DNA of 64,000 nt from Candidatus Gottesmanbacteria bacterium (GCA_030679255.1 JAUXTO010000042.1:44714-108713), one strand, 5' to 3'; shown: positions 6,924 through 23,297, counted from the stretch's first letter. A program made the numbers and translations. Notes: generated by a model from the letters alone, not told the origin.

Positions 6924-6998
6924 GGGTCGGTAGCTCAACGGTAGAGCAGTAGCCTTTTAAGCTATTGGTTCTGAGTTCGAATCTCAGCCGACTCACCA
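6924..6998 (+). tRNA. tRNA-Lys (anticodon UUU)
   Basis: Manual fold: acceptor GGGTCGG/CCGACTC (one G-U), D-arm GCTC-AACGGTA-GAGC, anticodon stem GTAGC/GCTAT loop CTTTTAA, T-arm CTGAGTTCGAATCTCAG, encoded CCA. Confidence 0.85.
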
Positions 6999-8515
6999 AC
7001 TTTGGCAGAGGGGGTACTATACTCCCTAGTCATCGCATATCCACGCCCTAATTCTGGTGTTCGAAATTTTATTCCTTCATAGACAAGTCCATTAGGGAAC
7101 ATCGAACACCCGATAGCCAGTTTGCCCTCAAGAGAGGCATCAATCCATACCCGTTTCATGTGAGAGAAGTAGTATTTGATAAAATTGACGCTGGTATCGA
7201 CATCAAGACGATCTATCTTTTTTTCACTAACAATACCCCGCTTCACTGCTAGCTGGGTTTCAAGATCATCTTTCATGGCGAGATATTCTTTGTCTGTATA
7301 TACACCTTTGGCGTTCTTGAGTCTCACTGTCCTCAACAATTCTTCAAGCTCTGCAATATCCCGGTGAACCTGATCCTCTGTATGGATGAGAAGGTTATTT
7401 TGAGCCTGCCACTTCTCGAGCACCATCTCTCCGAACCACTGCATATAGCCTTCGTCAAAAGTGATTCCATCAACAAGCTTGAGAAATGCTTCCTCTATAC
7501 CGTTCTCGCCGTCCTTACCATAGGAAATCACCTTATGTACGCCTCTTGTTGGACAGGCATAATACCCATATTTTTTGTATTTTCCCTTACTCCATGCGGA
7601 GGAGAGTTTTTTTCCACACTCACACCGGAGAATCCCCCTCAATGGGAAGTCCTCCCGTTGTTTCGCATATCGTTCTAGTTTTGATGGTCGCTTCCCTGTA
7701 AGTATCTCCCGGACACGGTAGAAGGTATCCAGGTCGATCATCGCCTCTTGCTGTCCGGTGGCTTCCCCATACTTCTGTGATACGAGAATACCTGCATAAA
7801 ACTTGTTAGAAAATACCCTGCTTGCTGATTGACGGAGAAACTTCTTGCACCGGCTGTCGTGTGTCAAGGTAAGCCCTAGTTTATTTATCTCTCTGGCTAC
7901 CTGAATCATGGAGAGTTTTTCCTGATCGACCCTATGCCACATAGTCTGAATGACTGGAAACCATGTCGGGTCTTTAACTGCAATGCTTTTTCCGTTCACT
8001 TTTTGCATTAGATATCCGATAGGAGGCTTTGAAGTTATATGTCCTTCGGTAAATCTTCTTTTAAGAGAGTTGGATACGTTCTGTGCCCTTTCCTCATTTT
8101 GATATTGATTGAATGATGCAAGGATCGTTTCGATCATTTTCTCTGCTGGTCTGTCGCCGGATGGTTCTGTAGTGGATATGAGACTGACGCCATGCTTTGC
8201 CATGAGTTCACGGATCACCAGGTAATCGAGTGTATTCCTATTAAGCCGTGAGAAGGCATAGACAATGATTGCGGATATATCGTTTTTGGGGTCTTTGACA
8301 AACGTGAGCATCTCCTGAAGTTGAGCCCTATCGGTCGTGGAAGCGCTAACTCCTTCTTCTCTGAATGTTTTGGCTACGATAAACCCCAATTGATCTGCCT
8401 TCTTTTGACACAGATCCTGCTGACTATCCAAAGAATAGCCATCAATTTGCTTATCACTGCTCACGCGGACATAAGTAACACAGTTTTTCATGCGAGTAGA
8501 TTTTGGGCAGCACAT
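6962..8515 (-). CDS. large serine recombinase (integrase); C-terminal tail overlaps tRNA-Lys 3' end; true start may be 8491 (MKNCVTYVRV)
   Basis: 517 aa; resolvase catalytic motif YVRVSSDKQ, recombinase domain, C-terminal CxxC...C zinc ribbon (CECGKK...YYAC). Confidence 0.85.
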   Translation of the reverse strand: MCCPKSTRMKNCVTYVRVSSDKQIDGYSLDSQQDLCQKKADQLGFIVAKTFREEGVSASTTDRAQLQEMLTFVKDPKNDISAIIVYAFSRLNRNTLDYLVIRELMAKHGVSLISTTEPSGDRPAEKMIETILASFNQYQNEERAQNVSNSLKRRFTEGHITSKPPIGYLMQKVNGKSIAVKDPTWFPVIQTMWHRVDQEKLSMIQVAREINKLGLTLTHDSRCKKFLRQSASRVFSNKFYAGILVSQKYGEATGQQEAMIDLDTFYRVREILTGKRPSKLERYAKQREDFPLRGILRCECGKKLSSAWSKGKYKKYGYYACPTRGVHKVISYGKDGENGIEEAFLKLVDGITFDEGYMQWFGEMVLEKWQAQNNLLIHTEDQVHRDIAELEELLRTVRLKNAKGVYTDKEYLAMKDDLETQLAVKRGIVSEKKIDRLDVDTSVNFIKYYFSHMKRVWIDASLEGKLAIGCSMFPNGLVYEGIKFRTPELGRGYAMTREYSTPSAKVGESAEIRTQNQ

Positions 8516-8660
8516 TTATTGTTGCGCCCCTTTAGTTTATTTTGCAATAGGTCAAGAGCAACATCGGCCAGCCGGGAGAATTTTTGGATCATCTCGGCTA
8601 CTTCTTGATCGGTCATATCTTTGATCTTATCTCCAAGTAGTTGTCTGGTGCGTTCAGTGG

Positions 8661-9023
8661 TCATGGTGTTTGTCTCAAAATAGTCCGAAACGTCCGGACA
8701 CTGTCCAATAGTGATCGTGGCGGGACACTTGCCTTGTTGCTAATAAACGCATTGACTTCTTCTTGTGCTATGTCTCCCGGGGAGAATTCCAGAGTTACCC
8801 TGCCGGTCATGTCCCGTTTCTGGGATATGAGCTTGAGTATTCCGAGCCCCGTTAGGTATAAAAGATAGGTAGCGAGATCCTGATCGCTTGATTTATAGGT
8901 GTCCATGTGTTCTCCTTTTGGCTGCCGGTGTAAAGAATGGCCACAATTTGAGTAATAATCCTTCTTCTCGAACGGTAAACCACTGGTGATAGATGGATTC
9001 ATACTCACGACTATTACGATCAA
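8661..9023 (-). CDS. hypothetical protein (element-encoded)
   Basis: 120-aa ORF in recombinase-primase operon; likely start at internal Met (MDTYK). Confidence 0.3.
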   Translation of the reverse strand: MIVIVVSMNPSITSGLPFEKKDYYSNCGHSLHRQPKGEHMDTYKSSDQDLATYLLYLTGLGILKLISQKRDMTGRVTLEFSPGDIAQEEVNAFISNKASVPPRSLLDSVRTFRTILRQTP

Positions 9024-9270
9024 GAAGCTGTAAGCGTGTTCGTAGCTCTACCTCATGTTTTTTTATGCTCTTGTGTGGATCATCCGGAGCAATCTCACTC
9101 AATTCCTGTAAACTGGCAGATCGAACCCGTTGTCTATGAAGGAGTTCCTTATCTATCTGCTGTAAATTGGTCTTGTCCAAGAAGGCGGGCTTTTCTGCTA
9201 TCCGTTCACGAAGTCTTGTAGCCATGGCTGATAATTTTTCATCTGGTAGTGCGTAGAGTTGTAGTTTCAT
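8893..9270 (-). CDS. hypothetical protein (element-encoded)
   Basis: 125-aa ORF, 4-nt overlap with primase stop. Confidence 0.35.
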   Translation of the reverse strand: MKLQLYALPDEKLSAMATRLRERIAEKPAFLDKTNLQQIDKELLHRQRVRSASLQELSEIAPDDPHKSIKKHEVELRTRLQLLDRNSREYESIYHQWFTVREEGLLLKLWPFFTPAAKRRTHGHL

Positions 9271-10859
9271 TCAATTACCTCCAAATTGTCTAAGAATTCG
9301 TCTTGTTCACTTTTCTTGTCATTGGTGGAGGTTGGTGGAACTTCGTAGGCACGAGGTGGAGCTTCGAGGCCTGTTTTACTAAACTCTCTATGCGAGAAGT
9401 CTCTAGAGGTAGTTTGTGGAAATGACCCTTGAACCTCCACCGTAGCCTCAAAATTGGTTGACGAACCTCCACCTGACAACGAAATTCCCCGGTAGAAATT
9501 GCCCTTTTTGCCCTCTAAGCGCTTGTAGCGTTCTCCTATCTTTTGGTAGAAGGTTTTGCTACCTAGCGATTCCTTTTTATCGTACCCCTGCTCAATGGCC
9601 CAAGCCTGGTATGCTTTCCACAAATCTGATGCTTTTGTTTCCACGGTCGGGAGCAATTCACACTTCTCGTTGATAAAGTCCGCCAACGTATCGCTTTCCT
9701 GTTGGTATTCGCTTGTCGCCTCAAGCACACACTGTGGAATAGGCTGCAAGCCCTCTTGTTGCCACAACAAGCAGCCTTGAATGAGCCAGTTGAGTATTCC
9801 CGATTGTTCTGTCTGGAGCTTTTGGGTCAGCTTGAGGTCTTGTTGGGCCGTGGTAAAAATACGGGTAAAGGGGATCAGTCGAACCCGGCGCCAGAATCCA
9901 AGAGAATCATCGCTCACAAGCGGTTTATGATTGACGAATAACCATATTTTGCAATGGGGCTCAAAGGTAAACCCCTCCGCATACAGGTAACGTGCCGTGA
10001 TTGCATCACCACCGGATATGTTTTTGAGCCTAGATTCATCTATCTTGCGTCCACCTAGCACCTCAGACGATACCACCATGCGCTTGAATTCCAGGGATGC
10101 TAGGTCGTTTGATGTGGTCGTTTGATTCCGTTGAAAGGTATGAAATGGTGCGTCGTGACTGTAATCTCCAAGTACATTCCGAAGTGTTGAAAAGAGGACG
10201 CTTTTACCGTTGCTACCGATCCCATAACAAAAGAACACGACCTGTTCCGATGTATCGCCCGTGAGGGTGTACCCAAGTGCCTTGTGAACAAAGCGAATAA
10301 GCTCCTCATTGCCCTCAAAGATTTCACCGATAAACTGTTCCCACCGTGGGCAGGTAGCAGCCGGATCATAAGATATATGCGTCGACATGGTGATCCGGTC
10401 TTCTTGTTTTCCTTCTCGGAACGATCCGTCATTGAGGTCAATAATCCCGTTTTCACAAGCGAGGAGATTTTTGTGCTGATCCCATTCCTGCCCGTTGTCT
10501 GCAATTGGAAGAAGATTTTTTGCGATTCCTGTTGACGCATCAAGACGCATCTTAGATTCACTTTGTATGGCCCATTTAGCTACTGCGGTACGCTTTGATA
10601 AATCTTCAATATCTTTTGCATCGCTATAGAGTTGTTTGACTGCCAGCACCGCAAATCGGTTAATCTCTCCGGAATCATCGGGACACCATCGGGGGGATTT
10701 CCAAAGCAGCCATCGCTTGCGGCGGTGATCGAAGCGCACCCTATCCCCAAACAGTTCAACGATCTTTTCAGCGTTAGACGTATCGGTGCATCGGATAGGT
10801 TCACTACTTGGGTTGATTAGCTTCATTGTTTTATCGATAATTTGGTCTGCTGTTTTCAT
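9267..10859 (-). CDS. D5/P4-family primase-helicase C-terminal (NTPase) protein
   Basis: 530 aa; Walker A FFCYGIGSNGKSVL typical of phage/plasmid primase P4-family C-terminal domain. Confidence 0.75.
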   Translation of the reverse strand: MKTADQIIDKTMKLINPSSEPIRCTDTSNAEKIVELFGDRVRFDHRRKRWLLWKSPRWCPDDSGEINRFAVLAVKQLYSDAKDIEDLSKRTAVAKWAIQSESKMRLDASTGIAKNLLPIADNGQEWDQHKNLLACENGIIDLNDGSFREGKQEDRITMSTHISYDPAATCPRWEQFIGEIFEGNEELIRFVHKALGYTLTGDTSEQVVFFCYGIGSNGKSVLFSTLRNVLGDYSHDAPFHTFQRNQTTTSNDLASLEFKRMVVSSEVLGGRKIDESRLKNISGGDAITARYLYAEGFTFEPHCKIWLFVNHKPLVSDDSLGFWRRVRLIPFTRIFTTAQQDLKLTQKLQTEQSGILNWLIQGCLLWQQEGLQPIPQCVLEATSEYQQESDTLADFINEKCELLPTVETKASDLWKAYQAWAIEQGYDKKESLGSKTFYQKIGERYKRLEGKKGNFYRGISLSGGGSSTNFEATVEVQGSFPQTTSRDFSHREFSKTGLEAPPRAYEVPPTSTNDKKSEQDEFLDNLEVIE

Positions 10860-11398
10860 ATCAATCTCCTCACCGCATCCGGAAAACTATACTTGTCGTG
10901 ATTCATCAAGTAGTCGATGGCTGACCCACCGTGAGCAGCACATCCAAAGCAGTGGTAGGAGTTGTCTTTGGTATAGAAGTAAAAAGACGCGGTTCGTTCT
11001 TCATGGAAGGGGCAGAGTGCCTTGAAGTTATGCCCGGAACGGATAAGGCGGCCGTCATAGAGTTCGTGGGTGGGATATTCCTTTGCCCTGTCTATCTGGT
11101 CTTGAGAGAGAAAATTAGATGGCTTTGATTCCTGTGGCAAACACCGAAGGTACAAATCGCACCAATAGGCCAACTCTGCTTTTAACTGATCCCGTTTCCG
11201 TTGTTCTGCAAACTGGATATACCACGGTGCGCGGTTGGTTCCCATCCTGTGGCCAAGATACTCTCGTTGGGCAGGTGTGAAACGGCGGGAGTTGTGTACC
11301 ATGGTGGTGTACTCCCAGACCTTCTCCTTGAAGATTGGCTTAATGTCGTCTTTGCCGAATATGTCTATAGTTTGGTTCATTGTCATAATACTCTCCAT
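10856..11398 (-). CDS. CHC2 zinc-finger primase N-terminal domain protein
   Basis: 180 aa; CPFHEERTASF...YHCFGCAAHG zinc-binding motif of DnaG-type primases; ATGA overlap with D5 ORF. Confidence 0.7.
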   Translation of the reverse strand: MESIMTMNQTIDIFGKDDIKPIFKEKVWEYTTMVHNSRRFTPAQREYLGHRMGTNRAPWYIQFAEQRKRDQLKAELAYWCDLYLRCLPQESKPSNFLSQDQIDRAKEYPTHELYDGRLIRSGHNFKALCPFHEERTASFYFYTKDNSYHCFGCAAHGGSAIDYLMNHDKYSFPDAVRRLI

Positions 11399-11573
11399 TT
11401 CTGCCCACTAAAAAACCCCCGTACCATTGGACTAATAAAATCCAATCGTACAGAGGTTGGTCAGACGGTTACCTTATACCGAAGGGTAGCTCAGGATGTC
11501 AGCTTTCTCAGCTCGACTATCGTCCGTTACTGTTCTTTCAACTGACGCCCAAAGACTTTGTGCTATGTGAACG

Positions 11574-11876
11574 TCAGATTTTCTTTTTATCTTTACCCAT
11601 CATTTTAATTTTATCGTCGTGTATAGCAGTAAGTGACGGTGAACGCATAAACTTCATAATGTTTTCACCAAGAACAACATTCTTTCGTCCAACTTTAGAC
11701 GAAACTAGTTTTCCCGATTTCATAAGTTTATAAATAGAACGAACATCGACGTTCATCGTTTCAGCTACTTCGTCCGGTCCGTATACTTTAAGTGGCACTA
11801 TTGGTTTAATATCCATAATCGCAGTATACACCCCATTATCTCTAAATGCAATAGGGCAAAAAGCAATTGAATACAT
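11574..11876 (-). CDS. excisionase/AlpA-like HTH DNA-binding protein (start may be internal MDIKPIV at 11816)
   Basis: KVYGPDEVAETMNVDVRSIYKLMKSGKL helix-turn-helix resembling phage Xis/AlpA family. Confidence 0.45.
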   Translation of the reverse strand: MYSIAFCPIAFRDNGVYTAIMDIKPIVPLKVYGPDEVAETMNVDVRSIYKLMKSGKLVSSKVGRKNVVLGENIMKFMRSPSLTAIHDDKIKMMGKDKKKI

Positions 11877-12032
11877 CTACCTCTTGACACTGATCTCTAC
11901 AGGGTATACGCTTGAGTAGCTTAGAAAGAACCGGTGAGAACATATTGTATAATTACTACGCCATCAGGCGAGATCTTTCTAAGCAATCGATTCTCACCAA
12001 CCTGATGGCAATTTTTGTGGAAAGGAGACAAC

Positions 12033-12152
12033 ATGAGAAATATACTAGCTGACCGGGCCTTCCTGCTCCGGACGATTCAGGCGCTCATCTGTGGCGCGAT
12101 GGCGTTTCTCGCATCTGGGAGTTTAGGGTTGAAAATCGGGAGGATTCTATGA
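12033..12152 (+). CDS. 39-aa hydrophobic peptide (possible)
   Basis: ATG preceded by aaaggagacaac; MRNILADRAFLLRTIQALICGAMAFLASGSLGLKIGRIL; ATGA overlap with next ORF. Confidence 0.2.
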   Translation: MRNILADRAFLLRTIQALICGAMAFLASGSLGLKIGRIL

Positions 12153-12367
12153 GCAGACGCACCGTATTACTCGACAGGATATACAAGCGATTTGCCACAC
12201 CGGAAGACCTACGGATTGTGGATGAGCTATATGCCAAAGGTTCCAAAGGTGTTGCTGTCCGCAAGATGCTTCAAGACATCCTTGAGAGACTGGATACCAA
12301 AGAATGGAATGCGGAGAAAGCACGGAGAATAGATGATTTTGATATCCCACGACTTCTTGCAGCGTGA
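12149..12367 (+). CDS. hypothetical protein (element-encoded)
   Basis: 72-aa ORF with RBS gggagg. Confidence 0.35.
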   Translation: MSRRTVLLDRIYKRFATPEDLRIVDELYAKGSKGVAVRKMLQDILERLDTKEWNAEKARRIDDFDIPRLLAA

Positions 12368-12426
12368 GGCTAGGGGTAGAGGTTCTGCTATGTAGAGGCG
12401 CTTCGGGAAACCGGGGCGCTTTTAGT

Positions 12427-12996
12427 TCAATTAGCAACAACAAGCGCTGTTACAACAGTTGGATGTTTATAAAATTTCCCCTCAAACGCATATACCCCTG
12501 CATCCCATTGCCCTTCGGCAAACAACACTTCTGCGTGTTTAGGGCTATTGATCCATGCGTGTACAATTGTTTCTGAATTAGTAGGACCTAGCGCAAGATT
12601 TTCCTTCATCCTGTCATACCGTAGCCGCAGCCTGGTAATAATGTTTTTCATTGTCGCACCGCTTCGCGTGGCTTCGTGGCTAAACTCGCTATTTTCAAGC
12701 ATATCTTTTGCCCGGAGATAGGCAACGTAAGATAGATCGTGGCTTTCAACAAAAGGAGGTAAATTATTCTCTTGCCTGGCTTGGTTTATGAGAGCAAACA
12801 TTTGTTTTACATCAACGGACGTCGTTGATGAAGGCGGTTCCGGGAGTACCGCAGAAGAAAAAACGTATTGAATGTCACCTTTAACCTCATATACAAGAAC
12901 GCCAAGCGCGCCAAAAGCCAGAAGAATTGCTGCAAGCGTAAGGAGTATCGGGAGTTTTAGGCTTATAGGACGCTTCATACATCTATTATACTCCAA
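12427..12996 (-). CDS. CAP/SCP (YkwD-like) domain protein with N-terminal signal anchor
   Basis: 189 aa; N-terminal TM; WINSPKHAEVLF...GVYAFEG resembles CAP-domain SPxHxxN(I/L)L motif. Confidence 0.55.
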   Translation of the reverse strand: MEYNRCMKRPISLKLPILLTLAAILLAFGALGVLVYEVKGDIQYVFSSAVLPEPPSSTTSVDVKQMFALINQARQENNLPPFVESHDLSYVAYLRAKDMLENSEFSHEATRSGATMKNIITRLRLRYDRMKENLALGPTNSETIVHAWINSPKHAEVLFAEGQWDAGVYAFEGKFYKHPTVVTALVVAN

Positions 12997-13224
12997 ATCG
13001 AATGACTAGCTGTTTACGTAGCATCGTGGTGTTGTGGTGGATGTTTTCTATGACTTATCGTAAAAGGGTAGAATATACCTCTTTTGAATATAAAGCCGTT
13101 TTACCCCTACAGATGAGGCTGGATAAACGGTAACTTACCCTCTTACAGGCGATCCACTATGGAAAGATTAGATAGGGGATTCTTCTTATTGTAAACATAG
13201 GATTATTCTTTATACCATCTTCTC

Positions 13225-13419
13225 ATGGCAAATTGGGATGATATTTTACAGGAATTAAAGAGCATTAAAGACCTCTTGCAACACAGTACGATCACGGTTG
13301 TTTCCAACTCGATAAGCCCTTCACAATCACCAAGTGTCTCGGTTTCTCCAAGCGTCAGTCCGTCAGTGAGCGTCAGTCCAAGCTACTCTCCCTCAATTTC
13401 TCCGTCAGTCTCCTCGTAA
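13225..13419 (+). CDS. small protein with (V)SPS repeat tail (possible; may be repeat artefact)
   Basis: 64 aa; C-terminal SPSQSPSVSVSPSVSPSVSVSPSYSPSISPSVSS encoded by GTCAGTCC-type DNA repeats. Confidence 0.2.
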   Translation: MANWDDILQELKSIKDLLQHSTITVVSNSISPSQSPSVSVSPSVSPSVSVSPSYSPSISPSVSS

Positions 13420-13544
13420 TACAAAAGAGTGTCTTCGTCTCACAATCTACCCTCATATATGAATTGTACGACTCAATAAGGAGCGTAATCTCGTGCCTGT
13501 GAGGTCGTAGGATGCCCTAGGAGGCACGAAGTGGGGTCAGGTGG

Positions 13545-16500
13545 CTATAGTTCCTTCTTAATTTTGGGGTACTTTATAGAAGTGATAGTTTTTAGCTTTG
13601 GCACCTTATATTTCTTGAATTTGGCAAGTCGCTTGGGTTTCTTCAGAGTAAACTTTTTCAGTGCAATCATTTTGACCTTAGGAATCTTCTTGACGGTCAA
13701 CCTTGCTTTGGAGGTAGAAAGATCAGAAAGCACTTCTTTGACTTGGGATACATCAATAACACCGGCGGTCACCGCAGCACTGATCTTGTTCTTTTGTGTC
13801 GTGAGCGCTGACTTGTATTTTGAGAGCGCTTGTTTATCTACCTCATAATTTCCCACCATCTTTGGCTTTTGAGGGATATAAGAAACGTCTACAGAAGTCA
13901 CTGTGCCTGAAGGGGAAACATAGAAAAGCTTTGTCCCACTGCTTGCGGGTTGTCCTGTGAGGCCTACGGTTTGTCTCGCCTTGAGATCTTCTTTGGTTTC
14001 TGCTTGTTGATCCATAAAGTCACTATATGTTTTGGTTCCACCACGGACCAACTCGGATTGATTGGCTGATAGGGGCCGGGCATTACTATCAAAGTACGTC
14101 TGTGCTTGTGGAGTAGAGTATTGTCCGAACAACATGGACTTTACATAGTTGGGGAATGTTTGTTCTACTGGGAAACGGATATTTCCAGTCGGCGTTGTTG
14201 ATTCCCCCTTATTGTAGGATTGTAGACCTTCAACGGTTTTTCTTATCTGTACGCCACCAGGAAAAAACGCTGGTGCTACTTTGATGAGATTGCGCTTGCC
14301 TTCTTCTCTCGTTTGTTCTTCGCCAAAAAGCATTTGTCCTGTTGCTTGTCCCGCCTGCAACGATGGGGTAAGTCTAGGGTTTATTGGTAATAGGTCTAAC
14401 TTCATCCCGAATGCGTCCTTGAGTATTTTTGCCATAACGAGAGTTGCTCCGACGTAGCGCACCAATCCCGCAATATCCCTTTGTGCAACCTTAGTGAGCA
14501 GGAATTCTCCTTGCTTAATGTTGAACGACTGGAACTGAAGAAGTGTTTTGTTGATATCGCTTGATAGCGCAAGGGGTGTGTCGATACTGCCGAACACAAA
14601 TTGTGTTTTCCGAACGATACCCTTTGCGTACTCTATCGCCTGTTGTTCACTCATGTTTTGTGAAAGTGCCTTGGCTTTCGCGCCGTAATAAGCAGCACCA
14701 CGATTGATCTTTTCCGCTTTATCGAACAGGTAGAACAGGCCTTCGTCGAGCTTTGTGAGGATGTTTTTGTAGACGCCGATATTCCTATCCTGAATGAATG
14801 AATCTTTCAGCACTCCTACGCGTTCAAGTTCGTTTGATCCCCAGTTTCGGGCAAGCTTCAAGTAGCCTGTGGCTGTCCAACGTTCCCCAAGCTCTGCGTA
14901 AGTGTTGGCGCCCTGGGAAAGATTTCGAAGCGCCGAAGATACATTCAATCCCAGTGTCCCGCGATAGACTGTCTGCCTGATCGATTGAGATAGAGCCGTT
15001 ACTGGTCGGGGACCGAAGCGGTACCCGATAGGAGTGCTCTTGATGAAATTATCAATGAGGGTATCTATCTCCGTAGGACGAAGATTGATTCTGTCCGTGA
15101 GTTTTTGTAGATATTTATATTGTGACAGTTCGAGGCTTGGTGATTTTGCCTTTAATGCTTCCAGGGCAGGGTCAAGATTATATTTCCTCACTGCCCGTTT
15201 GGTATAAGCATCGAGAGCCGCCCATGTATCTTTGAGATAGTCAATCCTGTCGCTTTTACGCATGAGCAGGAACGGATCGTAGACCCCACCCGCGACCTTC
15301 TGGTCGATAAGTTTAGCGAGGGCAGGGTCAAACTCTCCCTCAACCGCGCCCTTGGTCCAGATGTGGGTGATGTAATTACTTATCTGTTTAGATGGTGGCA
15401 GTTTTAACTTCGTTGCCCAGTCCGCTAAATACCCTCTGATCTCCATTGCAACCCTGCCTTCAACGGGATTGAGTCCTACATTTTCCCCGTCCAAAGCTCT
15501 GAATATCCGTTCGTTGCTCTCAGGCGGAACCCGCTTCTGCCAGTCTGATATTCTCTTTATTTCATCCGGTAATTGCGTGAGATACGATTCGTACTGTGAA
15601 CGAAGATACTTCGCTTCATCTCCCAGCCCGATCTTTTGAAGTACCTGTTCGGGCGTTCTCAAATAATCAACAATGTTTACCTTGTTTTGTACGTTGGTGA
15701 ACGTGGGGTCAATGACGTTTTGTACACGTCCTATTGCTTGCGGGTCGTTGGCGGTAAATGCTTTTTTTACATATCTCTTGGCCTCCTCGACATTTGCGGC
15801 AACCATCTTGTCATATGAGGAATGATCGAGCGGGCTTATCCCGTCATCAAGGATTCGTTGTGCTTCTTTGGCGTCAATAAACCGTATCTGACGGGCGGTA
15901 AATCCACGACTTCCTAACTCTTGGGGATAGTTCAGAAGATTTGACAACCGTTCATTCGGAGTTTTAGGTACTTTAGAAAGTGCTTCATCAATGGTAAATA
16001 TTTTGTCCTCTATGGTACGAATAATACTCCCGACTTGGGTATCATTCTTCATAGTCTGAATGATTGCATAATCTTTTTTGTAGTCTCCTGAACCACCGAC
16101 TAAATTCACTAGTTCCTTGTTGAGTGTTGCCCGTAACGCTTGTAAGTCGTCTTTTGCTCCCGTCTTTATGAGCTTATCCGCAAACTCGTTGTACACGATT
16201 GACGCTTCTTCTGGTGTTTTGGTGAGGGAAAGACGACCACTAAGTGCGTTTTGAATCTCTGGTGTTTTGGTAAACCCCATGATCGCCAGTCGATCTGTCT
16301 CCTGGAGTTGTTTTCCTGCTGCTATTTCTTTTGGGGTAAATGTTGTTTGTCCTCTGTTTGCTTTTGTTAAGAACGATTGCTCCTCCGGTGAGTAAGAGCC
16401 TCCCGTGAGCAGATTCAAGCTAAACTTGGCTATATCCCCAGTCTTTACATCAAAGCCTTCTGGTTTAATAGGATTTCCTACACCCCATTTTAATGTGGGA

Positions 16501-16823
16501 AGCTTATTCAGTTGTGCGTCGATCTGTGGTTGATAGTCCGTCATCACTGCACGGGAGGGGATGATGTTACTCGAATATATTCCTTGTTTCTGAAGGCTTT
16601 GCTGAGAAATTGTATTTTGCTTTAATTGATTGGAAAAATTAGTTACTGCATCATTGACCCTGTTCACAAAGGGTTGTACCTGGGGCTGCAGTTGTTTCTG
16701 TACCCACGACGCTGGTGTTGGATTCTGCTGGATAAACGACTGAGCCTGACCGAACAGTTTACTTGCGGTATTTTGAATTTTCGTTGCTACTTGTTGACTT
16801 AGAGTGTCCCATAGATTAGCCAT
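13545..16823 (-). CDS. very large Q-rich hypothetical protein (virion structural-like); start set at MANLWDTLSQ, ORF track extends to 16991
   Basis: About 1090 aa; 8-nt overlap with stop of upstream gene; Q/N-rich N-terminus, K-rich C-terminus; no family recognised by eye. Confidence 0.5.
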   Translation of the reverse strand: MANLWDTLSQQVATKIQNTASKLFGQAQSFIQQNPTPASWVQKQLQPQVQPFVNRVNDAVTNFSNQLKQNTISQQSLQKQGIYSSNIIPSRAVMTDYQPQIDAQLNKLPTLKWGVGNPIKPEGFDVKTGDIAKFSLNLLTGGSYSPEEQSFLTKANRGQTTFTPKEIAAGKQLQETDRLAIMGFTKTPEIQNALSGRLSLTKTPEEASIVYNEFADKLIKTGAKDDLQALRATLNKELVNLVGGSGDYKKDYAIIQTMKNDTQVGSIIRTIEDKIFTIDEALSKVPKTPNERLSNLLNYPQELGSRGFTARQIRFIDAKEAQRILDDGISPLDHSSYDKMVAANVEEAKRYVKKAFTANDPQAIGRVQNVIDPTFTNVQNKVNIVDYLRTPEQVLQKIGLGDEAKYLRSQYESYLTQLPDEIKRISDWQKRVPPESNERIFRALDGENVGLNPVEGRVAMEIRGYLADWATKLKLPPSKQISNYITHIWTKGAVEGEFDPALAKLIDQKVAGGVYDPFLLMRKSDRIDYLKDTWAALDAYTKRAVRKYNLDPALEALKAKSPSLELSQYKYLQKLTDRINLRPTEIDTLIDNFIKSTPIGYRFGPRPVTALSQSIRQTVYRGTLGLNVSSALRNLSQGANTYAELGERWTATGYLKLARNWGSNELERVGVLKDSFIQDRNIGVYKNILTKLDEGLFYLFDKAEKINRGAAYYGAKAKALSQNMSEQQAIEYAKGIVRKTQFVFGSIDTPLALSSDINKTLLQFQSFNIKQGEFLLTKVAQRDIAGLVRYVGATLVMAKILKDAFGMKLDLLPINPRLTPSLQAGQATGQMLFGEEQTREEGKRNLIKVAPAFFPGGVQIRKTVEGLQSYNKGESTTPTGNIRFPVEQTFPNYVKSMLFGQYSTPQAQTYFDSNARPLSANQSELVRGGTKTYSDFMDQQAETKEDLKARQTVGLTGQPASSGTKLFYVSPSGTVTSVDVSYIPQKPKMVGNYEVDKQALSKYKSALTTQKNKISAAVTAGVIDVSQVKEVLSDLSTSKARLTVKKIPKVKMIALKKFTLKKPKRLAKFKKYKVPKLKTITSIKYPKIKKEL

Positions 16824-18078
16824 AGATCGGTTGACCGTTTTGATCGTATCCTTTGAATACTTTTCCGGATATTTGTCCTGTGTAATTTGGTGTGTTTTGT
16901 CCGTTTGATGAATTGATTGATAACGGTGATGCTGGAGTGGTTGTCGTTTGATTGAAGTAGTTATTGAGTGCTGATTGTGAGCCTTGACCACTCATTTGCA
17001 TCTGTCGGGCATAGGTATCTAACGCTGTTGCAGCCTGGCTTCGTTGAAGTTCTAGGGTTTGCTCAAATTGAATTTTCTGAGAGTTTATTTGAAACACTTC
17101 ATTCCGGAGAGTCTGTAAAGCAGAGAGAGAAGCTTGGGCTTTTGCAGATGCTATTTGTGACCTGCTTTGTGAAATAGAAAGAAGTTTGTTTTGAAAGTCA
17201 CTCTTTGCTTGAGAGAAAGCAGAATCCGTATCGTATTTTAGCTTCGTCTTAGCGGTAGAGTAGCCACGATCAAGATCATATTTTTGAGTGTCAATCTGTG
17301 CCATAGTGTCGCTATAGGATCGCTGTGTTAGTCCCATCTGACGTTGCTGTTCAACAGATGAAAGTTCACTGGCTGCTTCACCTGCGGACGTACTACCACC
17401 AAAGCGTTGCTGATATCCACGACGTAATTCGTCATACAGTCTTCGTGCTGCTGTAAGCGCATCTTCTTTTCGATACCCTGCGCTTGTTGCGTTGCGATCA
17501 AGAGTAGAAAGACCAGAGGTATTTTGATCATTGAGCATCTGAGTGTTCACATCGAATTGCCCTTGGATTGATTTTTGTACATCGGGATATTGAGCATTCA
17601 GAGTATTTTCAGCTTCTGTGAGATATTGAAACGAGGGGTTATACAGTGCATCAATCTGGGATTGAATATCGGGCTGGCCTTGGCCTTGTTGTGCCATGAG
17701 TTCTCGATAGCGGGATTCTTGTGAGGGGTTACGATCCATCTTAGATAATTGTTGAAGTTCTGAATCACTTGGGCCTGTGGGGGTTGTGTTCGCTCTTGTT
17801 GTTACTCCATTAACCTGACCCGTTCCTGTGTTATTGTTTCCACCGGTAACCATTCCTGAGGGCTTGGGTTGTATGTAAGGGGTGTCGTATGTTCCGGTAA
17901 CTGGTTTTCCTGCGATCGTGTTAGCTAGACCTGTGACGGGTCCAGCGCCTACGACATTAGGAGTCACCATGCTTCCAATATTTGCCACGGTTTGACCCAG
18001 TGCCTGACGTGCCTGCCCAGAACCAAATTGATTGACTGCAAGATCGTACCATCCACCTAAATTTTGAATTGCTCCCAT
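16816..18078 (-). CDS. Q/N/S/T-rich hypothetical protein (start at MGAIQNLGG with aggaga RBS)
   Basis: About 420 aa low-complexity protein; RBS AGGAGAA 5 nt upstream of ATG at 18078. Confidence 0.45.
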   Translation of the reverse strand: MGAIQNLGGWYDLAVNQFGSGQARQALGQTVANIGSMVTPNVVGAGPVTGLANTIAGKPVTGTYDTPYIQPKPSGMVTGGNNNTGTGQVNGVTTRANTTPTGPSDSELQQLSKMDRNPSQESRYRELMAQQGQGQPDIQSQIDALYNPSFQYLTEAENTLNAQYPDVQKSIQGQFDVNTQMLNDQNTSGLSTLDRNATSAGYRKEDALTAARRLYDELRRGYQQRFGGSTSAGEAASELSSVEQQRQMGLTQRSYSDTMAQIDTQKYDLDRGYSTAKTKLKYDTDSAFSQAKSDFQNKLLSISQSRSQIASAKAQASLSALQTLRNEVFQINSQKIQFEQTLELQRSQAATALDTYARQMQMSGQGSQSALNNYFNQTTTTPASPLSINSSNGQNTPNYTGQISGKVFKGYDQNGQPIYG

Positions 18079-18286
18079 ATGTTCTCCTGTGCCTAATCCT
18101 ATCCAACCGATATTTATGTTTACAATGACCAAAAATTAAGTCCTGGAATAACGGGAGGAAGTAAAATGAAAATTTGGCCTCTCCATTAAGATACACGCCT
18201 CCCGTTGTCTCAAATCTTAATCCTAAGGGGCGTTTTGGTCGTCACCTCACGCCCCATGATTATTAGTTGTTTTATAAAAGAACCAA

Positions 18287-18502
18287 TTACACACCTTTAG
18301 AATGAATCACTGAGCTTGCTTTTCCTTTGCCTGCTATGCCTGCTGTTTTCTGTAACTTGGAAGTCAATGCTCCTGTTTTGTTTGCATTTGAGACATACTT
18401 TGCATGTGCCAGCGACAGGTCACCCGCATGAACGTACTTAGCTTGTTTTGCTCCTACGTTTGCCGCTACGTCTTTACTCCATCCTTGTTTATCGATTGCC
18501 AT
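18287..18502 (-). CDS. small K/A-rich hypothetical protein
   Basis: 71-aa ORF in TerL-downstream block. Confidence 0.3.
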   Translation of the reverse strand: MAIDKQGWSKDVAANVGAKQAKYVHAGDLSLAHAKYVSNANKTGALTSKLQKTAGIAGKGKASSVIHSKGV

Positions 18503-18520
18503 ATAGTATTTTCACCTCCC

Positions 18521-18724
18521 TTATGTAAATCTTCTTTTACCTACGAAATCAATCAACATTTGAATGATCTCTTTTTTACTTAACTGCTCACCATTAGCGA
18601 TGATGAAAGTAAAAATCTCATCCTCTATGGTCCTTTCACCAATCTGTGCCTGTCCATGATTTGCCGTATTAGCCCACTGTGTGGCTACGGAATCCATGTG
18701 TTCTAAAACGTTATATGTTGTCAT
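18521..18724 (-). CDS. small hypothetical protein
   Basis: 67-aa ORF. Confidence 0.3.
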   Translation of the reverse strand: MTTYNVLEHMDSVATQWANTANHGQAQIGERTIEDEIFTFIIANGEQLSKKEIIQMLIDFVGKRRFT

Positions 18725-18748
18725 ATAGTTTTTCCTTTCTAAATGTTT

Positions 18749-18931
18749 TTATATTTTTGCTTTTAACACTCTCCATTCCATCTCGTCTCTTGTAAAAAGT
18801 TTCTTGTCGATATTTACCCGCATGGGTGGATCTCTCGGTTCACCTTCTGTTTTTCTAATGGCATCGTACTTCTTGATCCGTTCCATAATCTCAACATCAT
18901 TTGCCGTTGGTTCTGTTGTTTGTTTTGTCAT
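18749..18931 (-). CDS. small hypothetical protein
   Basis: 60-aa ORF. Confidence 0.25.
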   Translation of the reverse strand: MTKQTTEPTANDVEIMERIKKYDAIRKTEGEPRDPPMRVNIDKKLFTRDEMEWRVLKAKI

Positions 18932-18993
18932 ATCTGTTTATTCACCTCCTCTAAATTGTGAGATAAAGCTATTCATGTTTGCACGAGCAAAAA

Positions 18994-20298
18994 TCATCCG
19001 ATTCTCCATTTCTTTTTTAGTTCTTTTGCTTTTTGTAGCGATTGGTATGAGTTTGTCTTTGGTGTCTGATCAAGATTCCAGCAGTAATATTCAAACGCTC
19101 TCATGGCGTGGGAGTATTGGTTGTGAATAGGTATCTCGTTGGATTGGTTTACCATGGTCTCTCGTTTTTGAGGGTAACAATAGTTCACAAGACAGTCTCG
19201 AAACCGAGAACAATTTGGATTTGAGGATGATACATATAGCCGTGACATAAAACGATGCGCATTCCGTATCTGCGTTGGAATATCAGGGATAAACGAAGTC
19301 TTTACATAGTGTCCGAGTCTTGCAAGTTCCTCTATTGGTGATTTGCCGGTTGTTAAGTCTCTTGCAGTTCCCGCAATATCACCTGCTTCAAAGGAAGGAA
19401 TTATATATGGCTTTGCACTGACAGCTTGGACAAAGTGGTCAATATTGGCATTTGAATCTTCGATATAGTCAATCAAGCGGATTTCTGAACCTCTTTGCTG
19501 AAGAAATAGAATAACCGTTGGATCATTCACGCCAAAGTCCCACGCTAAATGAAGAGGAAGCAAAGGATCATAGTCAAAAGGAATGTATCGTGTCTCCATG
19601 TCCCAGTCTTCATACACAACACCGTGAGGCTTTTCGTATTCTGCAAGAATTTCCTGTCGATAATATCCCATGCCCATTTGTTTATATTCAGTTATCAATG
19701 CTTGTAATTCCTGGGGATCAAGTTCAGGATTATCTGAAGAAGTAAAGTGAAAACACTTGAACAGACCGCTTTGTTCTAGTGAGTAGAGTTGTCTAAATCC
19801 TTTGGGAGTTCCTGCCATGATAGCGGGAGCTTTATTGGTTATAAGGTTTGGACGAATAACTGTTGGCCATATATTTGATTCCCAATCATCAATCTCATCA
19901 CCCGCGAACGCTCCCCAATTTGAAATACCACGAAGTGCCTCCGCATTTTCAACACCAAGTAGTTGTACTTTCCCACCATTAGGAAGTGATATAGAGAGTT
20001 CCGCCTCATTCTTTTTATAGGGAAGTTTTATCCCTGTGAAATGGTCAAGCATCCGTTGTACATGGTCTGACCACACGATGTTTTTACTCTGTACTCTGTT
20101 TGGTGAAACATACGGGCATGTGAGGTTCGTTTTAAGTGCCATTTCAAAAAGCCATGAGATAAGAAGGCTTGTTTTTCTCCATTTACGGCCTGCACGAAGT
20201 TGAATAAACCGAAAACCATCATCAAGAGCCTTCAATACTTCCTTTTGTCCTGAGTGTGGTTTTGTCGGATAGAATGTATTTACTTTTATTTCGCTCAT
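18994..20298 (-). CDS. terL: terminase large subunit
   Basis: 434 aa; FIQLRAGRKWRKTSLL Walker-A-like motif and overall layout of phage TerL (ATPase + nuclease). Confidence 0.75.
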   Translation of the reverse strand: MSEIKVNTFYPTKPHSGQKEVLKALDDGFRFIQLRAGRKWRKTSLLISWLFEMALKTNLTCPYVSPNRVQSKNIVWSDHVQRMLDHFTGIKLPYKKNEAELSISLPNGGKVQLLGVENAEALRGISNWGAFAGDEIDDWESNIWPTVIRPNLITNKAPAIMAGTPKGFRQLYSLEQSGLFKCFHFTSSDNPELDPQELQALITEYKQMGMGYYRQEILAEYEKPHGVVYEDWDMETRYIPFDYDPLLPLHLAWDFGVNDPTVILFLQQRGSEIRLIDYIEDSNANIDHFVQAVSAKPYIIPSFEAGDIAGTARDLTTGKSPIEELARLGHYVKTSFIPDIPTQIRNAHRFMSRLYVSSSNPNCSRFRDCLVNYCYPQKRETMVNQSNEIPIHNQYSHAMRAFEYYCWNLDQTPKTNSYQSLQKAKELKKKWRIG

Positions 20299-20299
20299 A

Positions 20300-20740
20300 T
20301 TATTCTCCCCTAGTTAGAACAACCTCAATGTTTGTTTGTTGCATCTGTGCTGGTATATCGGTTTCTATACCGAGGAGTTTTCCGAGTTTGTCGTGATAAT
20401 CTTTTCGTGTCTTATGATCCGCATACATCTCACCGGAGAATTGATCTCGTTTAGTAGCTTCTACCCCCTGACGAAGCTGATCAAAGTATTTCTCATGATC
20501 TAGACCATAGGCTTGCATGATCTCTTGTTTGTTAACTCGTGCTAACCATCGTGATCCCAAGACCCGTGAGGAGTGATCGTCAACAGAAGGGTGCAATTCC
20601 TTGTATGCTTTTGAGGCATTTAGTCCGCACTTCACCCACGTAAGATAAAAAAGCATCAGATCTAAGTTTCCATCAAACGCTTTCTCGAGATCCTTAATGT
20701 TAGGTGTTATTTTATTTTTCATTGGTATCTTTCTTCTCAA
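20300..20740 (-). CDS. terS: terminase small subunit-like HTH protein
   Basis: 146 aa immediately upstream of terL; CGLNASKAYKELHP resembles TerS N-terminal HTH. Confidence 0.5.
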   Translation of the reverse strand: MRRKIPMKNKITPNIKDLEKAFDGNLDLMLFYLTWVKCGLNASKAYKELHPSVDDHSSRVLGSRWLARVNKQEIMQAYGLDHEKYFDQLRQGVEATKRDQFSGEMYADHKTRKDYHDKLGKLLGIETDIPAQMQQTNIEVVLTRGE

Positions 20741-20927
20741 AGTATCGAAAGCGGTGCTGTACTATTTTCTTTGGATCGATCTCAGGATAATCAGAGACCA
20801 TGTCTCTCCCCCCAAGTCGAAGGAAAAGATAACACCGTAAACAAAGCGTATCGACGATATCGTGCATAGTTACACGAAAAAAATACTCTCCAACCACTTG
20901 TGTACAATAGAAACATACCCGCTTCAC
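20712..20927 (-). CDS. hypothetical protein
   Basis: 71-aa ORF overlapping neighbours in operon. Confidence 0.2.
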   Translation of the reverse strand: MKRVCFYCTQVVGEYFFRVTMHDIVDTLCLRCYLFLRLGGRDMVSDYPEIDPKKIVQHRFRYFEKKDTNEK

Positions 20928-21223
20928 TTTGCCCCTTCCTGATTTAGTTTTGTCACAATTTCGTCTGCGGTGTTCAGTGTCAACTCGGTATTACTCTCGG
21001 ATATCATGGCCGCTCCGTCATTCACCGTTTGCATAGCCTCATTGTTTTTTTTCATCTGCTCTAGCAAGCTCATGTTTCGCAGCGCTAGTTCGTTTGAGAG
21101 CTTGAGGACACAGTCAATGTGCCACGACCCCTGTTGAAGACCAATCTTTGTGGTGAGTTGTGTTTCTCCCGTGCCACAATAAGGGCAATTGCCGTCGCTT
21201 ATATGCTCCATTGAATCGTTCAT
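20924..21223 (-). CDS. zinc-ribbon hypothetical protein
   Basis: 99 aa; CPYCGTGE ... C pattern. Confidence 0.35.
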   Translation of the reverse strand: MNDSMEHISDGNCPYCGTGETQLTTKIGLQQGSWHIDCVLKLSNELALRNMSLLEQMKKNNEAMQTVNDGAAMISESNTELTLNTADEIVTKLNQEGAK

Positions 21224-21316
21224 ATTGACCTCCTCATTGAATAATAAAAAAGAGATATGTATGTTTACAAGTGCCCTTTATTGCATACATACAAGTTCCC
21301 GATATAGGATTGATTT

Positions 21317-21595
21317 ATGAATACATTACAGACGGAATTCCACCAGAAGGTGAACGAGAGAAACCGGATCATCTTTGAGCGGTACAAAATGGTATCGGGG
21401 GATGTGCTTTCCATAGAATATGGTATCAGTCACCAACGGATTCATCAGATTGTTCGTAAAATAGAAAAAGAAACCGGTGTTAGCATGCGCCAGATTATCA
21501 GAGAGCGAAAGCGGGTTGCCGTGGTTGATGCGTGGAGGGCAAAGTCAATGATTTATAAGCATGACTGGGGGTCGGTACAGTATCAACCTGTTTAG
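21317..21595 (+). CDS. hypothetical HTH-like protein
   Basis: 92 aa; LSIEYGISHQRIHQIVRKIEKE resembles sigma-70 region-4-type HTH. Confidence 0.35.
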   Translation: MNTLQTEFHQKVNERNRIIFERYKMVSGDVLSIEYGISHQRIHQIVRKIEKETGVSMRQIIRERKRVAVVDAWRAKSMIYKHDWGSVQYQPV

Positions 21596-21730
21596 CATAA
21601 GAGGCTACGCTGTCATAAACATTGGTACATAGACATGAAGTTGCTGATATATACTGTTATATTCTCTTAGAAGGTGTTCGAAATAGAGCAATTCGGGCTC
21701 ACTATTTTTGAAACATAAATTGTTTTATAT

Positions 21731-22276
21731 ATGAAACCACGAATCATATATATTCATGGGAATCAGACGACGCATTGGTCTTTCGCGTGGGCTGCGTGGC
21801 TGAAGCAGGAATTGGAAAAGAAAGGCTATATCACGTTTTTTGAAACATTTCCGGATTCTATCATCGCCCGATGCGAATATTGGTTACCGTTCCTCAAAGA
21901 CCATGTGAAGGCGGGGGAACATGATGTGCTGGTTGGTTGGTCTACCGGTGCAGTAGCGGCACTTCGATATGCGGAAACGAATAGAATACTCGGTTCAGTC
22001 TTGATCTCCCCAAGCTACACGGATTTGGATGACGAGATGGAAAAGCAGGGCGGGTACTTTACGACTCCTTGGGATTGGCAAAGCATCAAAAAAAATCAAA
22101 AGCAAATCGCATTATTTTACGGCGACGATGACCCGTACATCCCACAGGAACAGTTTGAATTTATAGCAAAACAACTTACTGCTAGGACGATGAAAATTCG
22201 AGGAGCAAAACACTTTATCGAACAAAACACCTTCCCCGAGCTTCTTGCCTACTTACTCGAAGTATGTTCACATTAG
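21731..22276 (+). CDS. YdeN/RBBP9-like alpha/beta serine hydrolase
   Basis: 181 aa; IYIHGNQTTHW, GWSTGA nucleophile elbow. Confidence 0.6.
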   Translation: MKPRIIYIHGNQTTHWSFAWAAWLKQELEKKGYITFFETFPDSIIARCEYWLPFLKDHVKAGEHDVLVGWSTGAVAALRYAETNRILGSVLISPSYTDLDDEMEKQGGYFTTPWDWQSIKKNQKQIALFYGDDDPYIPQEQFEFIAKQLTARTMKIRGAKHFIEQNTFPELLAYLLEVCSH

Positions 22277-22293
22277 CATGATAATAATTTTGA

Positions 22294-23262
22294 TTGTATA
22301 ATCAAATAATGCCTTACCCATCATCTGCTAAAGATCAATTCGTAAACGGCGTGCTGCATGAGTCAGATAGACTAATTACTGACCAAGTTAGAACTAGGTG
22401 GTCAGGATATGAGATGAAAAGGATCGCTAAGACAATTCCATTAATTGAAGGTGATCTTAATGATAGTCCGTTTCCATACCATTTTGATCTGAGAACAGGA
22501 GGATTTGTCGATATGGGAGCGTCTGATAGTCAAACTGTGACTGGTGTTAATCGTGATGTCATTTATCGAGTCCAATACCAAAACAGTCATGGAGAACTTG
22601 AGCAATATCCGCCTTTTAAAATCGGTGGTTTAAATATAGTTGAAGGGATCAAAGGAACATCGTTGCCTAAAGATCAGGTCGGTGGGTTGAAACGAGCGTT
22701 GGCAATGATCGAACCAAAACGGGATTTTGTTTTAGATGGAGTTGATTGGAAGGATCTAGCTATGATGAAAGCGTTGAGTGTGATAGGAGTATCCGGGCAA
22801 GATTTGCCCTGGACTACTCTCTCTGAGCGGTTTGAAGAATCTAATTCTGTAGTCCCTCAACTATTACAGTATAAAAATTTCGACGACATTCCTAATTTAT
22901 TTACTCCAGATGAACTTAAGCTAACATTTGGAATAGAATCGAAATTTAAATTATCACGTTTATTTAAAGCGCTCGCCGCAAATCCATCATCCCCTGCTAG
23001 CATATCAACGGACAATTTTTATGCAACTGTTGTAACTTATATGTTGCAAAAATCTTTACCCTCACTTTATGATTTAACAAAAGGTATAAGTACGAAGAAG
23101 CAGCTATCTGCAGATGAGCAGCAAGCGGTTGAGAAAATTACAAGTTTTTGTGTAGATAAAGGTTTGGCTATATGGGAGAATATAGAATCTGATAAGAGAT
23201 TGGTACTAAACCCGCACGTTATTAATTGGATAAGAAGTATGGTTCCCGACAAAGCTGAGTAA
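22294..23262 (+). CDS. hypothetical protein (low-GC cargo at element edge)
   Basis: 322-aa ORF, no recognisable motif. Confidence 0.45.
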   Translation: MYNQIMPYPSSAKDQFVNGVLHESDRLITDQVRTRWSGYEMKRIAKTIPLIEGDLNDSPFPYHFDLRTGGFVDMGASDSQTVTGVNRDVIYRVQYQNSHGELEQYPPFKIGGLNIVEGIKGTSLPKDQVGGLKRALAMIEPKRDFVLDGVDWKDLAMMKALSVIGVSGQDLPWTTLSERFEESNSVVPQLLQYKNFDDIPNLFTPDELKLTFGIESKFKLSRLFKALAANPSSPASISTDNFYATVVTYMLQKSLPSLYDLTKGISTKKQLSADEQQAVEKITSFCVDKGLAIWENIESDKRLVLNPHVINWIRSMVPDKAE

Positions 23263-23297
23263 TTTGTTTCATGAGTCTGAGACCAAATTTTTAACGT

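Follow-up and report, generated by a model that had tools for sequence, protein, structure and literature searches.

In phage satellite systems such as P4, with P2 as helper, and the Staphylococcus aureus pathogenicity islands (SaPIs), with 80alpha as helper, a satellite of about one-third of the size of the helper can be packaged in small capsids or, in full heads, as trimers. The core set of the phage-inducible chromosomal islands (PICIs), which comprise the SaPIs and the PICIs of Gram-negative bacteria, consists of an integrase (Int), an AlpA-type helix-turn-helix (HTH) protein, a D5-type replicase and a small terminase subunit gene, terS (PMC10085698). For bacteria of the Candidate Phyla Radiation (CPR), very little is known of mobile elements and viruses, and in the papers searched we found no title or abstract on phage satellites in this group. 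Here, we describe an integrated mobile element of 14,706 bp at a tRNA-Lys gene in the genome of a Candidatus Gottesmanbacteria bacterium (CPR/Patescibacteria), lying at about 6997-21697 of a 64,000-nucleotide stretch (GCA_030679255.1 JAUXTO010000042.1:44714-108713), which was analysed at its full length and is referred to as the window, positions being counted from its first letter. On balance, we judge this element to be probably a PICI-like phage satellite that depends on a helper, a dependence deduced from its gene content.

The genes of the element match the PICI core, with int, an AlpA-type HTH protein, a D5-type replicase and packaging genes, and with no structural genes. As in PICIs, the element is ~15 kb and att-flanked with its integrase at one end, it has a divergent regulatory region, an AlpA/HTH_17-type protein with a presumed regulatory role beside the replication module, and a D5-type replicase-helicase, it carries packaging gene(s) without capsid, tail or lysis genes, and it is about one-third of the size of the presumed helper. 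It differs from PICIs in having a serine and not a tyrosine integrase, an attP site inside int, its own large terminase subunit (TerL), which is a marker of capsid-forming PICIs (cf-PICIs) and not of PICIs (PMC10085698), two putative internal head proteins, these and TerL being atypical, and a CPR host; no homologs of Stl, Ppi or Cpm were found in the element. With cf-PICIs it shares int, a regulator, a replicase, a gene in the terS position and TerL, but the capsid, portal, protease, head-tail adaptor and connector genes that define that class were searched for and are absent from the element. A preliminary description of this DNA, made by a model from the sequence, had offered a cf-PICI-like element as one option, which is not supported, as any capsid, portal or adaptor gene is absent. 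The feature shared with P4-like satellites is the D5-type helicase only, and no element protein had a Pfam or PHROG match to the Psu, Sid and Delta families of P4.

Integration at the 3' end of tRNA-Lys

A large serine integrase placed the element at a CTCAC core within the terminal bases of tRNA-Lys(UUU). The target gene (6924..6998, + strand) was called by ARAGORN and by the Rfam tRNA model (72.9 bits), as first described, and was all that Rfam found. We defined the ends of the element not by repeats but by comparison with a circular relative, the 15,709 bp Logan contig L009, which is colinear with the window from 8494 to 6992 and then continues immediately from 21702 to 21655. The attL core (6992-6996) comprises the final acceptor-stem bases of the tRNA, the attR core lies at 21698-21702, and the 5 bp GTGAG/CTCAC core is common to attL, attR and the L009 junction, in keeping with the earlier expectation that a serine integrase leaves no long direct repeat; the window contains no second copy, as a direct repeat, of the 3' end of the tRNA, whether the window or the host-type version is searched for. 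The attR site together with a detached 3' end of int occupies 21617..21702 (- strand) and is the only attR-like site in the window, the attR side sharing 84% DNA identity with L009 (5875-5924), and the detached segment encodes the conserved integrase C-terminus, ...EPELLYFEHLLREYNSIYQQLHVYV. With the att sites mapped exactly, the general view holds that a phage-related element is integrated at tRNA-Lys and carries genes for integration, replication and packaging but none for head or tail; the right boundary had been drawn at 23290, 1.6 kb too far to the right of the actual one at 21702. Because the attR core is at 21698-21702, the alpha/beta-hydrolase and 322-aa genes that follow (21731-23262) are host genes, and in the reconstructed attB the tRNA-Lys gene stands 29 nt upstream of the hydrolase gene.

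The bases of the tRNA up to the CTCAC core are host DNA and those beyond the core are element DNA, which supplies CA and gives tRNA-Lys in the window an encoded CCA. The host-type tRNA-Lys in two other Patescibacteria metagenome-assembled genomes (MAGs) ends ...CCGACTCACA, with no encoded CCA. We also considered the tRNA T-arm, which differs from that in the Patescibacteria MAGs L012 and L013, as a part derived from the element, and rejected this, the crossover being in the five terminal bases of the acceptor stem. Synteny with L012 and L013 is too rearranged to yield an empty site. In L013, a homolog of a 150-aa gene of the window (25159-25611) is found inverted and immediately upstream of tRNA-Lys, which shows that the surroundings of this tRNA gene have been rearranged between lineages. 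The element is slightly richer in AT than the rest of the window (GC 0.441 vs. 0.473), as had been noticed, and the host segment to the right of attR (21703-23290) has the lowest GC of the region (0.397), below that of the element itself. A 12-mer, GGTGTTCGAAAT, flanks the reconstructed attP on both sides (window 7056-7067 and 21673-21684), one copy ending ~14 nt short of the core and the second beginning ~60 nt beyond it; L009 carries the same motif pair, and the attR-side copy resembles the tRNA T-loop (GTTCGAAT).

In its prophage form the integrase is a protein of 517 aa (6962..8515, - strand), with Pfam matches to Resolvase (E 5.6e-30) and Recombinase (E 4.4e-8), and its open-reading frame (ORF) overlaps the tRNA gene by 37 nt. 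These matches support the large serine recombinase of the preliminary description, including its overlap with the tRNA 3' end, and the zinc ribbon comes near to threshold (Zn_ribbon_recom, 24.8 bits vs. a cut-off of 25.3, which close homologs exceed). The reading frame crosses attL and its stop codon is inside the tRNA; the last eight sense codons of prophage int lie wholly in host tRNA sequence beyond the core, and two more span the core. When the ends of the element are joined, the reconstructed reading frame encodes 538 aa, ending ...EPELLYFEHLLREYNSIYQQLHVYVPMFMTA. As attP lies inside the 3' end of int, the prophage integrase therefore has 517 aa and a tail read from the tRNA, and integration would act as a genetic switch that alters the integrase C-terminus, presumably with an effect on function. 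The C-terminal peptide of the excised form is kept in two unintegrated relatives, L009 and L051, and also on the attR side of a third, L050, and selection thus acts on the excised-form int gene. Conservation of the detached C-terminus at attR as coding sequence across elements, moreover, argues for regular excision.

Like the large serine integrases of the phiC31, Bxb1 and A118 type, this enzyme has resolvase, recombinase and zinc-ribbon domains and uses a short core without long repeats, but it integrates into a tRNA gene at the 3' end, its attP overlaps the int coding sequence, its C-terminus differs between the integrated and the excised form, and no recombination directionality factor was identified in the element. 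A precisely mapped attP/attB pair of a serine integrase at a tRNA gene, with int rewired by integration, may serve as a recombination tool.

The window integrase is 78% identical to that of L009 (residues 8-508) and 51% and 48% identical to those of L050 and L052, in both of which the int 3' end overlaps tRNA-Lys(UUU) at the same GTGAG junction. Used as a query it found one 2-kb contig among metagenome contigs and had no match in IMG/VR. This integrase clade is present at tRNA-Lys in at least three genomes with varied cargo, its islands with other cargo carrying Abi_alpha or DUF4238 and CapR-like genes, and it appears to mobilise unrelated cargo; other tRNA-Lys islands without capsid genes number two. 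At the end of an apparent small island on the contig of P0119 (JGI 3300075153), we observed an integrase 63% identical to that of the window, and this island carries DUF4238 and DUF4379/CapR-like genes. The tRNA-Lys island of L050 contains two tandem attR-like sites ~645 bp apart (985-1110 and 1630-1760), each with GTGAG followed by coding sequence resembling the integrase C-terminus, which suggests successive integrations or a decayed earlier element. Besides its serine integrase, L009 encodes two adjacent tyrosine recombinases (12442-14420).

Packaging genes and a putative head-protein pair

The element encodes an intact TerL of 434 aa (18994..20298, - strand), which matched phrog_2 (2.2e-18) and had no Pfam match. 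It is 30-32% identical to the annotated TerL of Pelagibacter podophages (tblastn, E 1e-40), 52-67% identical to the TerLs of seven related phages (L001-L007), and 71-77% identical to those of L008 and L009, which are capsid-less relatives of ~15 kb. In an alignment with nine relatives the motifs RAGRKWRKTS, GDExDDW, GTPKG and WDFGVNDPT are all conserved, the Walker A and B motifs of the ATPase and the acidic motifs of the RNase-H-like nuclease thus being kept as in the phage TerLs of the lineage. Directly upstream of TerL, a 146-aa protein (20300..20740, - strand) is the putative TerS, called from its position, its size and an N-terminal HTH-like motif, these three being the whole basis of the call. 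In L050, TerS matches Pfam Terminase_2.

Two further genes take up about 30% of the element, one for a 420-aa, Q/N-rich coiled-coil protein (16816..18078, - strand, start taken from P0009) and one for a giant protein of 1092 aa (13545..16823, - strand, annotated start from P0001); the preliminary description had noted both, at ~420 and ~1090 aa, and both belong to conserved families. Structure prediction, which had been proposed as a way of finding capsid or portal folds in the two proteins, gave a coiled coil and a helical giant. The AlphaFold2 model of the 420-aa protein (98-sequence alignment), with a predicted local distance difference test score (pLDDT) of 74, has a disordered Q/N/G-rich N-terminus and then a three-helix bundle, with helices of 60-90 residues each (136-226, 231-315 and 320-377). 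A Foldseek search with this model against PDB and BFVD returned generic coiled coils only, one weak match being annotated as 'DNA transfer protein'. As modelled, the 420-aa protein is a three-helix coiled coil and not a capsid protein. Its family has >100 members, none with a Pfam domain, and the coiled-coil gene is always directly upstream of the giant gene. The model of the giant, built from 6 sequences, consists almost entirely of helices at a pLDDT of 47, too poor for a fold search, and the protein is predicted, with low confidence, to be almost all-alpha and not a capsid protein.

A full hidden Markov model search with the giant family recovered 5439 cluster representatives at E ≤ 0.001, 2028 of them at E ≤ 1e-30, mostly 900-1900 aa long; we flag here this family of >5,000 large, unannotated phage proteins. 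By BLAST the giant is modular, with a short N-terminal motif common to all giants of the group, a ~550-aa 'domain X' that shares 40-52% identity with the giants encoded on about 20 IMG/VR contigs, and a C-terminal tail rich in Lys. Domain X was not covered by any Pfam model in any member scanned, Pfam gave no match to the window coiled-coil protein or giant, and comparison of the giant with PDB sequences, by single query and by a 42-sequence profile, gave nothing meaningful. Homologous or positionally equivalent giants carry recognisable domains: LPD38 in L002/L018, L017 and P0008, RelA_SpoT in P0007 and ART-PolyVal in L039 (above the gathering score), and a DarB-like PHROG is matched by 19 of the 42 giant-family members. 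The domains of these homologs and the gene context suggest that the giant belongs to the polyvalent class of packaged head proteins. Polyvalent proteins have been proposed to travel inside the phage head and to be delivered together with the DNA (Iyer et al. 2017, PMC5512222), and virions of phi24B were found to contain an LPD38 giant (bioRxiv 10.64898/2026.04.10.717836). As in polyvalent/MuF-type head proteins (P1 DarB, phi24B gp47, SPP1 gp7-position), the termini are conserved and the central modules variable, the giant gene of full phages lies in the head module beside the portal gene, and LPD38, ART-PolyVal or RelA_SpoT occur in homologs; the window giant differs in having no recognised LPD or effector domain by Pfam, only partial and weak matches to DarB-like PHROGs, and in residing on a capsid-less element.

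In related phages, with contigs of 36-45 kb, the genes for the coiled coil and the giant are part of the head module. In L018 the order is TerS-TerL-coiled coil-325 aa-giant (LPD38)-120-114-portal-69-243-major capsid protein, in L028 and L029 the pair stands between the portal gene and a gene of 264-287 aa that precedes the major capsid protein gene, and in L011, L015 and L017 the order is coiled coil-giant-TerS-TerL-~140 aa-portal. PHROGs identified the portal (phrog_1216) and the major capsid protein (phrog_1328, 6.8e-48; phrog_9953) in L011, L018 and L003. In the window element, Pfam and PHROGs found no portal, scaffold, capsid, tail or lysis/holin genes, bearing out the earlier remark that portal, capsid and tail genes are missing; since the same searches readily find portal and major capsid proteins in the related phages, this absence is real and not a matter of sensitivity.

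Relatives of ~15 kb recur at 22-78% protein identity, with capsid genes in none. L009 has TerL, integrase, coiled coil and giant (integrase 78%, TerL 76% and giant 56% identical to the window proteins). L014 (15,767 bp, circular) has the integrase, coiled coil and giant, a Prim-Pol/DnaB replicase and no TerL. These two contigs each have a 30-nt terminal overlap, equal to k-1 as expected of a circular contig at k = 31, which we take to be the Logan setting, and the integrase reading frame of L014 closes across the contig junction. L008 (14.8-kb contig) has the same kind of gene set, with TerL, and L051 (15.0-kb contig) has an integrase with the excised-form C-terminus, a pair of 334-aa and 1324-aa proteins and no family match for TerL. 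L052, integrated at tRNA-Lys, has the integrase and a pair of 376-aa and 1336-aa proteins, with no TerL in the 10 kb seen; the large pairs of L051 and L052 were assigned by their coiled-coil/giant position, not by homology. Among the L009 ORFs tested with Pfam and PHROGs there was nothing comparable to a portal or major capsid protein, and in L008, L014 and L052 there was no capsid family among the precomputed Pfam matches, which are the only data for these three.

A candidate helper-dependent satellite

As a satellite, the element would excise after induction and then replicate, and its own terminase would load its DNA into procapsids of a co-infecting helper phage of ~40 kb from a related lineage. 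Its own coiled-coil and giant proteins would be built into the head, and they may accompany the DNA on delivery and serve in protection or establishment, or may act as capsid remodelling factors. At about one-third of the helper genome, the element could fill small capsids or be present in three copies per full head, and 3 × 14.7 kb gives 44 kb, which matches the 36-45-kb relatives (the elements are 14.7-15.7 kb).

Several points weigh against a satellite. Neither a helper phage nor induction or a packaged form of the element has been seen, and the circular contigs may represent plasmid-like episomes instead of DNA from particles. TerL is not constant in the family, being missing in the circular L014 and, within the 10 kb seen, in L052, and the pair that is constant, the coiled coil and the giant, is without a demonstrated role. 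The integrase is a serine recombinase, and the described PICIs have tyrosine integrases. Of the two terminase subunits named in the preliminary description, TerL stands by phrog_2, podophage homology and its motifs, and the putative TerS showed no significant family, profile or BLAST match. Finally, the statement that the giant is all-alpha, with no capsid or portal fold, is a prediction based on secondary structure and context at a pLDDT of 47.

One rival reading is an integrative episome, a plasmid-like and particle-free island in which TerL, the coiled coil and the giant would be anti-phage weapons or part of another route of DNA transfer. Such an episome would fit the relatives found as circular contigs, those without TerL, and the islands with Abi_alpha or with DUF4238 and CapR-like genes that the integrase clade carries at tRNA-Lys, and polyvalent proteins are also known from conjugative elements (PMC5512222). 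We nevertheless think it unlikely: no conjugation, relaxase or partition genes were seen with Pfam and PHROGs, a PADLOC search for defence genes gave no match, in phages the pair has portal genes on one side and scaffold/capsid genes on the other, and the catalytic motifs of TerL are all conserved. The lack of a demonstrated helper would suit a cryptic, degraded prophage, one of the options raised at the outset, in which a temperate phage of ~40 kb has lost its portal, capsid, tail and lysis genes and is no longer transmitted in particles; all phage-like genes have close homologs in the 36-45-kb phages, and the order TerS-TerL-coiled coil-giant is that of the start of the L018 head module. However, the same reduced, capsid-less set of ~15 kb is found in the diverged L008, L009, L014, L051 and L052, with only 50-78% protein identity and two of them circular, the ORFs of the element are all intact, the TerL motifs are conserved, and the coding sequence for the detached integrase C-terminus at attR remains conserved, and we regard decay as quite unlikely.

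The other option in the preliminary description was a novel virus lineage, that is, an autonomous minimal virus with a particle made of the 420-aa and 1092-aa proteins. The share of the element that these two occupy, at ~30%, and their lack of an annotated family speak for such a virus, but we strongly disfavour it and hold it to be extremely improbable: the smaller protein is modelled as a three-helix coiled coil and the larger, of the polyvalent class by its context, is predicted to be almost entirely helical, homologs of the latter carry polyvalent-protein effector domains, both proteins coexist with an ordinary portal and HK97-type major capsid protein in full-size phages, and a terminase needs a portal, of which none is present. 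If the element is, as we favour, a helper-dependent satellite, its combination of TerL and two head-internal proteins without a capsid would place it between PICIs and cf-PICIs, and would imply a hijacking strategy based on packaged proteins. We further propose, tentatively, that, as a first member, it could define a new class of satellites specific to CPR/Patescibacteria, of ~15 kb, at tRNA-Lys, with a serine integrase gene that spans attP and an integrase C-terminus switched by integration, with its own terminase and packaged coiled-coil and polyvalent head proteins, with no capsid, and parasitic on ~40-kb phages.

Replication, regulatory and accessory genes

The replication module consists of a 530-aa D5-type protein (9267..10859, - strand; Pfam D5_N 1.3e-28, DUF5906 4.9e-12, Pox_D5 8.3e-7), a superfamily 3 (SF3) replicative helicase or replication initiator, and a 180-aa protein (10856..11398, - strand) with a C-terminal CHC2 (DnaG-type) zinc finger (Pfam Zn_ribbon_DnaG 4.5e-21), the gene of which is translationally coupled to the helicase gene. 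These had been described as a D5/P4-type primase-helicase and a separate CHC2 primase domain; the helicase and the zinc finger were recovered, whereas no primase catalytic domain, of the Toprim or the archaeo-eukaryotic primase type, was detected, and the 180-aa protein matched PHROG DNA primase families over the zinc finger only. Upstream of both, the first gene of the leftward replication-integration operon (11574..11876, - strand) encodes a DNA-binding protein of the AlpA/excisionase type (Pfam HTH_17 3.1e-8), with weak PHROG excisionase matches and a homolog in L009, in agreement with the Xis-like HTH protein first proposed.

Between this gene and a divergent 72-aa ORF (12149..12367, + strand) lies a divergent regulatory region (11877..12148), where a repeat search of the sequence located three interleaved inverted-repeat pairs at 11919-12009, two of them perfect (11 and 9 nt). 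The repeats had no Rfam match and may act as operators or as an origin, or form alternative RNA structures. The 72-aa ORF has no family match, is 42% identical to an L009 homolog at the equivalent divergent position, and by its position is a candidate for a repressor or switch protein. A 39-aa ORF (12034-12153, + strand) has a good ribosome-binding site and an ATGA overlap with the start of the 72-aa ORF, and may be the first gene of a rightward regulatory operon. A scan for promoters and terminators gave no useful signal, promoter-like sites being fewer than in shuffled sequences.

Several small genes accompany the modules. Just upstream of int, a 58-aa ORF (8488..8664, - strand) was found by tblastn in the same pre-int position in L009 (73% identity over 37 aa) and in L010 (38%), and is followed towards the helicase gene by two overlapping, alternative ORFs of 120 and 125 aa (8661..9270, - strand), with no Pfam, PHROG or PADLOC match. 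In the ORF list, three small ORFs of 71, 67 and 60 aa (18287..18931, - strand; no PHROG match) lie between TerL and the coiled-coil gene, and two of 71 and 99 aa (20712..21223, - strand; no family, PHROG or PADLOC match) form the head of the rightmost minus-strand operon. Divergent from this packaging operon, a 92-aa HTH protein (21317..21595, + strand) has weak similarity to Mor/late activators (Pfam Mor 3.2e-4, below the gathering cut-off; phrog_532 6.2e-4). Between the giant and CAP genes, and on the opposite strand to these, a 64-aa ORF (13225-13419, + strand) made up mostly of SPSVS-type repeats is probably not a real gene. The CAP gene is an accessory gene for a 189-aa protein with a CAP/SCP domain (12427..12996, - strand; Pfam CAP 2e-9, phrog_16914 1.3e-16), which has an N-terminal hydrophobic segment and is predicted to be membrane-anchored or secreted, and CAP homologs (cluster 19) adjoin the coiled-coil gene in L008, L021 and L029.

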